Virus record (IMG/VR): IMGVR_UViG_3300027782_000065
Coordinates: 17,664-81,663 of that record
Strand: one strand, 5' to 3'
Length of the DNA: 64,000 bases
Origin: a virus
Taxonomy: Duplodnaviria; Caudoviricetes
Positions within the stretch are counted from its first letter, which is position 1. The number at the start of each line of letters is the position of its first letter. The position numbers and the translations under genes were made by a program. Below, one piece after another: positions 31,990 to 32,700 of the stretch. Below the pieces are notes generated by a model. It saw only the letters and a program-made list of their open reading frames with translations, was not told the origin of the DNA and searched no databases.

Positions 31990-32018
31990 ATTTTAGCATA
32001 AAAAAAGGAGGGAATCAA
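31990..32018 (-). promoter_or_regulatory. sigma70-type promoter overlapping a terminator hairpin
   Basis: TTGATT, 17 nt, TG-c-TAAAAT (extended -10). Confidence 0.55.
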
Positions 32019-32025
32019 TCCCTCC
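32000..32025 (-). terminator. intrinsic terminator of the riboswitch-peptide unit
   Basis: GGAGGGA-TTGAT-TCCCTCC followed by U7. Confidence 0.85.
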
Positions 32026-32031
32026 AGATAA

Positions 32032-32124
32032 TCAGCGCATTGCCATTGCAAGTTTTGCTTGGTGTTTGCGTTGTTCCTTTTCCTTTTGTTGTTTAATTAA
32101 AATAAGTTGCCAATTGTTTTTCAT
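32032..32124 (-). CDS. 30-aa basic, Gln-rich peptide downstream of a glutamine riboswitch
   Basis: MKNNWQLILIKQQKEKEQRKHQAKLAMAMR; AAGGAG SD 9 nt upstream; terminator right after the stop. Confidence 0.75.
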   Translation of the reverse strand: MKNNWQLILIKQQKEKEQRKHQAKLAMAMR

Positions 32125-32155
32125 AAGAGGTGCTCCTTTACTTTGTGGGTATTGG

Positions 32156-32201
32156 TGCGTTGCTTCCCTTATTGGTACTTCCACTGGTTTCCCAGTCAAC
32201 G
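32156..32201 (-). ncRNA. glutamine-I (glnA motif) riboswitch aptamer
   Basis: CGUUGA-CUGG-GAAA-CCAG-UGGAAGUA-CC-AAUAA-GG-GAAG-CAACGCA: P1 CGUUG/CAACG, P2 with GAAA tetraloop, E-loop strands GGAAGUA/GAAG, minimal P3. Confidence 0.85.
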
Positions 32202-32207
32202 TTTGGA

Positions 32208-32215
32208 TATTTATA
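32208..32215 (-). promoter_or_regulatory. late promoter TATAAATA (also a -10-like box) directly upstream of the aptamer
   Basis: Exact T4 late consensus ending 6 nt before the aptamer. Confidence 0.7.
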
Positions 32216-32225
32216 TAATTAATTT

Positions 32226-32241
32226 TGTAACATTTGATACA
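32226..32241. promoter_or_regulatory. NtcA binding site
   Basis: TGTA-ACATTTGA-TACA matches TGTA-N8-TACA exactly. Confidence 0.75.
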
Positions 32242-32301
32242 ATTTTAAAAACCTTCGCGTGAGAAAATTTTTGGAGGAATTTTTTCCGACTATTTTGAAA
32301 A

Positions 32302-32700
32302 TCACTTTCGCTTTTTCCTTTCGGGTGCCTTGTATCCCCAGACTTTTGGACTAACTCTTCCATCTGCCCATCTAAATTCCTTTAGATCTTCACGAAATTT
32401 ATCCCAATACATATCAAACAAACTAGTTCTTTTTGAACATCTTGTAATATCATAACAAAGTTTTCCATCAAGAACATAAGAAACTAAGTATGCATCAAGA
32501 GGTAACTGTGGATTTTTAGAATCTTTTACATTACAATTTTCGTGCAGTATTTCACAACCATAACGTGATTTGGAAATTTCTCTTTCTTGCAATGTCCAAA
32601 CTTCCAATTTTTCTTTCTTAGATACCTCTTCATTTTGTATTGACATCTTTTTTCTTGGTGCAGTATTATTTTCCATTATATCAATTTCAATGTTTTTCAA
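32302..32700 (-). CDS. conserved cyanophage hypothetical protein (likely start 32676)
   Basis: CEILHE....LP.DAYLV.Y.......YD......LFDMYWDKF......G..SPK.WG. Confidence 0.7.
   Translation of the reverse strand: MKNIEIDIMENNTAPRKKMSIQNEEVSKKEKLEVWTLQEREISKSRYGCEILHENCNVKDSKNPQLPLDAYLVSYVLDGKLCYDITRCSKRTSLFDMYWDKFREDLKEFRWADGRVSPKVWGYKAPERKKRK

Follow-up and report, generated by a model that had tools for sequence, protein, structure and literature searches.

The short leader that precedes a 30-codon open reading frame (ORF) in a viral genome raises the question of whether the virus senses glutamine through its RNA and, if so, which gene would be controlled and by what mechanism. The leader lies in a 64,000-nt stretch of DNA (hereafter, the window) that is part of an 81.6-kb IMG/VR virus record. 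A first-pass annotation of the window had proposed a glnA-motif (glutamine-I) aptamer with a reduced P3 stem at positions 32125–32201, upstream of a small peptide gene, and had named an Infernal search with the Rfam glutamine model as a check.

Identity and Anatomy of the Aptamer

The Infernal search was positive. It recovered a full-length match to Rfam model RF01739 (37.9 bits, gathering score 35; model positions 1–53 of 53) at 32203–32154 on the minus strand, with an E value of 9.6e-7 in a local scan and of 3.8e-8 for the whole 81.6-kb record. The proposed class was thus borne out, at a score margin over the cut-off of only 2.9 bits. A whole-window Rfam scan with default speed filters at the gathering threshold returned no match; this is an effect of the filters, not an absence of the aptamer, and it means that routine annotation would miss the element. 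On the basis of the RF01739 match and of stem covariation among 69 distinct phage aptamers, positions 32154–32203 (minus strand) encode a genuine type-1 glutamine riboswitch (glnA-motif) aptamer with a three-way junction. The string of letters given in the first-pass annotation is present letter for letter from 32201 (C) to 32156 (A). The minus strand had been left unsaid there; the rest of the interval that it assigned, to 32125, comprises the linker, the SD sequence, and the 8 nt before the ATG (32124–32122).

Stem P1 comprises 5 bp (32201–32197 with 32162–32158) and P2 comprises 4 bp capped by a GAAA loop (32195–32192 with 32187–32184), followed by the junction UGGAAGUA at 32183–32176. P3 consists of CC/GG only (2 bp, 32175–32174 with 32168–32167) around the 5-nt loop AAUAA, and both strands of the E-loop are unchanged (GGAAGUA, 32182–32176; GAAG, 32166–32163). 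The nucleotide preceding GGAAGUA is U in the window and C in 65 of the 69 phage aptamers among the matches listed. The 3' strand of P1 is followed by C-A-C-C, the first C of which (32157) is, according to the Rfam alignment and published work (PMC6212724, PMC6698751), the linchpin C (C60 of the solved structure); its partner is G 32181, and it doubles as nucleotide 2 of the anti-SD stretch discussed below. The ligand-contact positions of the solved glutamine-I structure, as relayed in PMC6698751 and PMC6212724, are all present by sequence (C1:G59 = 32201/32158, G2:C58 = 32200/32159, and G22 = 32182), as is the long-range G23:C60 pair (32181/32157) that the same sources describe. Judging from its sequence, the window aptamer would be expected to bind L-glutamine.

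Conservation of the Aptamer Among Phages

Scanning of IMG/VR with a pattern that fixed only the conserved core, and that did not require pairing, yielded at least 119 contigs, from which 69 distinct aptamers were analyzed. Pairs were counted with an anchored script because a MAFFT alignment split P1 with a gap. Among the matches listed, the free fifth pair of P1 was Watson-Crick in all 69 distinct phage aptamers (C-G in 57, G-C in 9, and U-A in 3). In the same set, P2 had at least 3 bp in 69/69, compared with 5.5% of shuffles, and P3 had at least 2 bp in 69/69, compared with 14% of shuffles. The 2-bp P3 that the first-pass annotation had described is real, though not unusual: 21 of the 69 phage aptamers among the matches listed have it, indicating that the “minimal” P3 is a common state.

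The form found in the window, comprising a single aptamer followed by the peptide gene, recurs in L130, L117, L136, L189, L114/L166, L113, and L086. In leaders of this peptide family (those loci, L166 aside), the linker is near-constant and all three helices differ by compensatory changes. Specifically, P1 is CGUUG/CAACG or CGUUC/GAACG, P2 takes the form of six different helices, and P3 is CC/GG, GG/CC, or GCC/GGC. We also gathered 80 IMG/VR loci with a relative of the 132-codon gene that neighbors the element and searched 50 of their records with RF01739. Matches were recovered in 25 of these 50 related virus records, 19 of them above the cut-off, and in the loci read they lie just downstream of the neighbor gene.

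The ORFs that follow phage glutamine-I aptamers (L113–L192, IMG/VR contigs) comprise many families of very short, basic ORFs of 18–81 aa. The Lys-rich family to which the window peptide belongs accounts for 18 of 81 such ORFs and YRG/DUF4278-like ORFs account for 17 of 81; other types also recur (e.g., 64–65 aa, 49–51 aa, and 28–35 aa). A few short-ORF families were also encoded on SAR11 or SAR86 MAG contigs (L246, L261, L267, and L297).

The 30-Codon ORF and Its Peptide Family

The ORF directly downstream of the aptamer (32032–32124, minus strand) extends from an ATG at 32124–32122 to a TGA at 32034–32032 and encodes a basic peptide rich in Lys and Gln. When the window was compared with four relatives, 15 of the 18 variable sites of the ORF fell at codon position 3, and codon differences comprised 75 that were synonymous versus 12 that were non-synonymous. 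The small gene anticipated by the first-pass annotation is therefore present and coding by its substitution pattern, and the 30-codon ORF is under purifying selection.

ORF finders extend this gene through the aptamer to a TTG start at 32199, giving 55 aa (32032–32199, minus strand), and gene calls of this kind conceal the riboswitch as well as the correct 30-codon gene. Profile searches for the family used an alignment headed by a 43-aa fused form. Among 1.8 billion proteins, HMMER recovered 49 representatives at 50% identity, nearly all of 29–60 aa; two longer family matches are public gene calls that wrongly read through an aptamer, an artifact to which P0141 and P0146 are tied. At 90% identity the family comprises 614 clusters; the 120 listed have no Pfam domain, and all are unnamed or “hypothetical.” The Lys-rich phage peptide is widespread and unannotated.

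Cassette Organization and Viral Carrier

The aptamer and ORF form part of a cassette of ~240 nt, located between the stop of the upstream 132-codon gene (32302) and the sole terminator (32025–32000), in the order NtcA-type box, TATAAATA, aptamer, 20-nt linker, SD, 30-codon ORF, and terminator. The element TATAAATA (32208–32215, minus strand) resembles a T4 late promoter or a −10 element, and its end lies 6 nt upstream of aptamer nucleotide C1. In the window, L113, L114, L117, L136, and L189, an A/T-rich, TAAATA-type element stops at exactly this distance from C1, in surrounding sequence that differs. The position of TATAAATA suggests that the transcript probably starts 1–2 nt before P1. A candidate NtcA-type box, a perfect TGTA-N8-TACA at 32226–32241 (minus strand), lies ~10 nt upstream of TATAAATA, with its center ~30–32 nt upstream of the likely transcript start. 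Of 77 distinct phage aptamers, 18 have the motif GTA-N8-TAC in the preceding 100 nt, compared with 3.2% of background 100-nt windows, and in 10 of the 18 its center lies 31–32 nt before C1. The NtcA boxes of gifA and gifB occupy repressor-type positions (−30.5 and −7.5; PMC6316151), and the placement of the box in the window would be repressor-like in the same manner.

The intrinsic terminator (32000–32025, minus strand; 7-bp stem, 5-nt loop, and U7) is kept in phage S-SRM01 and in the cassette-less L004. No terminator-like hairpin was found between the aptamer and the ORF. Overlapping the terminator at 31990–32018 (minus strand) is a sigma-70-like TTGATT-17-TAAAAT with a TG extension, which, from its sequence, could provide a start for the next genes (two 51-codon ORFs and thyX).

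The record is syntenic with the freshwater Kyanoviridae phage S-SRM01. Glutaredoxin, DUF2973, DUF6433, the 132-codon ORF, the riboswitch element, two 51-codon ORFs, ThyX, and PhoH follow one another on the same strand, and S-SRM01 has the same gene order around the element. DNA nearly identical to the window was found in freshwater and riverine metagenomes from many studies. The carrier of the riboswitch is a freshwater T4-like cyanophage. A blastn search of the cassette against cultured phages returned matches only in DSL-LC02 (linker region) and S-SRM01 (terminator), and contigs from two metatranscriptome runs map to 32374–32601 only, with none over the cassette.

In two freshwater metagenomes, the summed short-contig depth over 32040–32175 (the peptide gene and the 3' part of the aptamer) is 10–20x that of the flanks, indicating that many co-occurring phage genotypes carry the cassette core. 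Loose contig ends at the core run into other sequences in these metagenomes, including a double-core form. The cassette core breaks metagenome assemblies.

Variation at the Locus

The two closest relatives (neighbor protein 95% and 87% identical) are without the whole ~220-nt unit (L003 2930–2965 and L004 2955–2975, compared with window 32020–32245), and in L004 the upstream gene runs directly into the same terminator. The unit is thus a presence/absence variant inserted between gene and terminator. Most other relatives carry a composite aptamer of 92–105 nt, which Rfam aligns as one aptamer with a 45–57-nt P3 insert and which can also be read as two interleaved cores (L083 1501–1604, L085 187–286, L088 1501–1592, L104 1453–1557, and L106 1444–1551). 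The insert, flanked on either side by an aptamer half of normal type, resembles a second, partial core, with CGCAA in place of CGGAAGUA and without P3. In the composites, covariation (G:C or C:G) links position 23 of the first core to the nucleotide that follows the last P1 strand. The second-core hairpin closes around a complete 50–55-codon ORF in the cultured phages S-SRM01 (L002 2908–3140) and DSL-LC02 (L352 495–745) and in L096 (1501–1750).

In the operon of the relatives, the Lys-rich peptide gene is preceded by a DUF4278-like ORF (Pfam E 1e-3 to 1.5e-4, short of the cut-off) and often followed by an ORF for a hydrophobic peptide of 27–28 aa. A short piece of the DUF4278-like ORF with one YRG motif is fused to the peptide in L096 and P0164. 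The 27–28-aa ORF is conserved, is hydrophobic with a single helix, ends the operon in many relatives, where it overlaps the stop of the Lys-rich gene, and is absent in the window (L083 1156–1239, L091 401–484, L104 1699–1785, L105 1158–1244, L106 1100–1183, and L097 1837–1923). The P2 in the 5' half of the window element is the same as that of L083, whereas the match of the 3' half and of the linker is to L101; the window therefore represents the plain single-aptamer form of this locus.

Expression Platform

The SD sequence AAGGAG (32133–32138, minus strand) lies 8 nt before the start codon. The conserved linker that leads to it (32132–32158, minus strand) is near-invariant while aptamer stems differ and could form an OFF-state hairpin of a predicted −2.3 kcal/mol, in which GCACC (32158–32154) pairs with GGAGC (32136–32132) and an inner UAC (32151–32149) pairs with GUA (32141–32139). 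GCACC comprises the last nucleotide of P1, the linchpin C, and the following ACC. The hairpin appears in unconstrained folds of L114, L117, L136, and L189, and its counterparts in L086 (−5.4 kcal/mol) and L113 gain strength from changes confined to the 5' side; the DUF4278-type leaders show it as a perfect CUCUUU:AAGGAG duplex (−4.6 kcal/mol). Since the SD strand never varies, these data constitute one-sided variation in support of the hairpin and not true covariation. Across 64 distinct phage leaders, the 8-nt tail that begins at G59 pairs with the SD region at −3.76 kcal/mol, compared with −2.55 kcal/mol for shuffled sequences, a value that none of 200 shuffles reached. The CAC after P1 is conserved family-wide and may serve the aptamer fold itself.

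In the window the anti-SD hairpin is weak, at an energy equal to that of a pairing between AAGGAG and CUCUU proposed in the first-pass annotation. In a thermodynamic model, the probability that the SD is unpaired is 0.44 for the free window RNA and 0.38 with the aptamer enforced. Enforcing the aptamer raised this probability only slightly, from 0.41–0.42 to 0.46–0.49, in four of the six relatives modeled and did not free the SD in the other two. When the window is folded without constraints, the P3 region (AUAAGGG) pairs with CCUCUUAU at the start codon; since this pairing is not maintained in L130 and the other relatives, we rejected it as a platform.

Collectively, our findings suggest that the locus is, in all likelihood, a functional type-1 glutamine riboswitch in a freshwater T4-like cyanophage that controls translation of the 30-codon ORF that follows. 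The type-1 class turns expression ON in reporter assays with translational fusions, and an anti-SD ON mechanism has been postulated for Synechocystis gifB (PMC6212724); by analogy, the window switch would also be an ON switch. According to the mechanism toward which we lean, if only slightly, the transcript would start 1–2 nt before P1 from TATAAATA, with the NtcA-type box in its repressor-like position. Without glutamine, GCACC would base-pair with the GGAGC segment of the ribosome-binding site, with the inner UAC/GUA helix assisting. With glutamine bound, P1 would close on the ligand and the linchpin C would pair with G 32181, such that the anti-SD stretch is withdrawn and the peptide is made only when host glutamine is high.

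Alternative Explanations

The first-pass annotation had placed the platform of this aptamer elsewhere, in a local hairpin between AAGGAG (32138–32133) and CUCUU (32129–32125) just before the AUG. That pairing can indeed form (5 bp, 3-nt loop, −2.3 kcal/mol), is present in the aptamer-enforced fold of the window, and could be retained in L130, whose nearly identical cassette keeps CUCUU. It is not conserved, however: CUCUU is missing in L117, L136, L189, L114, and L101 despite a kept linker, SD, and peptide. The hairpin also has no nucleotide in common with the aptamer, leaving no evident way for glutamine binding to open it, and in the model it forms with the aptamer folded, contrary to what is expected of an ON switch. 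We consider it improbable that this hairpin is the platform. A somewhat better, though still unlikely, case can be made for a glutamine-sensing aptamer that acts mainly otherwise than by SD occlusion, through mRNA stability (RNase E and the A/U-rich linker) or through the fate of read-through transcripts. The modeled differences in SD accessibility are small (0.44 free versus 0.38 enforced in the window), and PMC6212724 still describes how the class acts as unclear. Moreover, the cassette lies between the upstream stop at 32302 and the sole terminator at 32025–32000, and since this terminator directly follows the upstream gene in L004, read-through RNAs with an internal aptamer are likely in the window. 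Weighing against such a mode are the lack of a terminator-like hairpin between the aptamer and the ORF, the significant complementarity between aptamer tail and SD over 64 leaders, and the fact that the reporter results for the class come from translational fusions (PMC6212724).

The history of the locus could also suggest that the element is a non-functional, decaying remnant of a larger double-core riboswitch and DUF4278 operon. Relatives have a 92–105-nt composite aptamer at the same spot, often followed by a DUF4278-like gene, the unit has been lost altogether in the two closest relatives, and a P2 like that of L083 combined with a 3' half and linker like those of L101 fits a deletion derivative. 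Yet the core nucleotides of the window aptamer are all intact, the single aptamer and peptide form recurs in several contigs with compensatory stem changes, and purifying selection on the ORF and the cassette depth of 10–20x the flanks in two freshwater metagenomes also argue against a remnant, which we regard as very improbable. Chance resemblance in A/T-rich phage DNA, to which the score near the cut-off and the empty default Rfam scan might point, was rejected as next to inconceivable: the match has an E value of 3.8e-8 for the record and syntenic counterparts in 25 of 50 related records, the aptamer lies exactly within an interval from promoter to SD, and relatives show compensatory changes.

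Possible Role of the Peptide

A gif-like role for the phage peptide is an attractive idea because, in cyanobacterial genomes, genes preceded by this aptamer pattern encode either DUF4278 proteins or small proteins matching the IF7A model (NCBIfam, E 6e-4 to 9e-10). The glutamine synthetase (GS) inactivating factor IF17 has DUF4278 as its N-terminal part and a C-terminal part that resembles IF7 (PMC6316151). In several cyanobacteria, type-1 aptamers were found directly before proteins of 49–56 aa that match IF7A and not DUF4278 (L263 4205–4360, L272 2147–2296, L275 635–790, L276 7632–7802, and L245 7222–7389), so the type-1 switch also fronts gifA-like genes, an arrangement not stressed in the 2018 survey (PMC6212724).

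Searches of the phage peptide against Pfam and NCBIfam returned no match, and none in NCBIfam even at an E value of 10; this includes the IF7 model (NCBIfam NF052599), although cyanobacterial riboswitch-linked small proteins match at E 6e-4 to 9e-10. Comparison of the peptide family with IF7-like cyanobacterial proteins by hhalign gave a probability of 0.3%, and no IF17-sized relative of the peptide was found among 1.8 billion representatives with HMMER. We therefore rejected the peptide as an IF7/IF17 homolog on sequence grounds. DUF4278 is absent from the peptide and from the 81.6-kb record, the PDB returned nothing for the peptide or for IF7-like proteins, and look-alikes in the ESM Atlas were generic charged-helix clusters only. 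Complex prediction of the peptide with Synechocystis GS, used as a stand-in for the host enzyme, gave a score of 0.01, which weighs neither for nor against an interaction.

It is thus only as a tentative analogy that the peptide might be a gif-like inhibitor of nitrogen assimilation. By the same doubtful analogy, the cassette could be a pared-down viral counterpart of gif, with the peptide as a new, phage-specific small inhibitor of GS or of another nitrogen-control protein. If the cassette were such a counterpart, the peptide would be made only with NtcA off and host glutamine high, and the phage could reset nitrogen assimilation late in infection.

Comparison With Known Glutamine Riboswitches

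Since 2010 the glnA motif has been known, along with its tandem forms and its distribution in marine environments (PMC2864571), and the function of the class was shown in 2018 (Klahn et al., PMC6212724). Glutamine riboswitches have also been mentioned in T4-like cyanophages (PMC9964418, PMC9602691) and reported in Melnitz-like methylophages and pelagimyophages (PMC9004378). The statement in the first-pass annotation that the class is known, cyanophages included, agrees with the 2010 report and with the three phage reports, and the riboswitch itself adds nothing new in kind. Like these phage copies, the window element belongs to the same class in T4-like aquatic phages and is variably present among close relatives. 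The genes regulated by the cyanophage copies were not analyzed in PMC9964418 and PMC9602691, whereas the target in the window is a defined, conserved 30-codon ORF. The Melnitz element adjoins a two-piece tmRNA (PMC9004378), whereas the element described here lies inside a promoter-to-terminator unit.

A glutamine-sensing leader likewise precedes a very short ORF in the type-2 switch (Downstream-peptide motif, RF01704) of the 33-codon yfr6 of Prochlorococcus MED4, which is an ON switch in reporters (PMC6212724). The type-2 switch differs in that it has a pseudoknot and no P3, and the MED4 peptide carries DUF4278; RF01704 had no match in the 81.6-kb record.

The leader of gifB (IF17) in Synechocystis sp. 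PCC 6803 (PMC6212724; structure of Ren et al. 2015 as relayed in PMC6212724 and PMC6698751) shares with the window the aptamer family, the core nucleotides, and the linchpin pair. In both, the aptamer lies in the 5' leader of a gene for a small basic protein, and the sequence immediately following P1 shows complementarity to the ribosome-binding site. A further likeness, in this case to both gifA and gifB (−30.5 and −7.5; PMC6316151), is the repressor-like placement of an NtcA-type box. Unlike gifB, the window copy is viral, its P3 is cut to 2 bp, its transcript probably starts at P1, and its target is a 30-aa peptide without DUF4278 and with no detectable similarity to IF7/IF17.

The nearest counterparts are the composite, double-core riboswitches of S-SRM01, DSL-LC02, L083, L096, and others, which occupy the same syntenic locus, have the same NtcA box, linker, SD, and terminator, and encode the same peptide family at the end of the operon. 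Unlike these, the window has one plain 50-nt aptamer in which CC-AAUAA-GG replaces the 45–57-nt P3 insert or, in composites with an enclosed gene, the ~170-nt insert with its 50–55-codon ORF, and it has neither the DUF4278-like ORF nor the 27–28-aa hydrophobic ORF. Because two cultured freshwater phage-host pairs (S-SRM01 and DSL-LC02) carry the larger versions of the unit, its biology is testable. The window, by comparison, represents the simplest natural form of this phage nitrogen-sensing unit, comprising one aptamer, one linker, one tiny ORF, a promoter, and a terminator, and as such offers a clean construct for studies of type-1 translational switching and of the function of the Lys-rich peptide.
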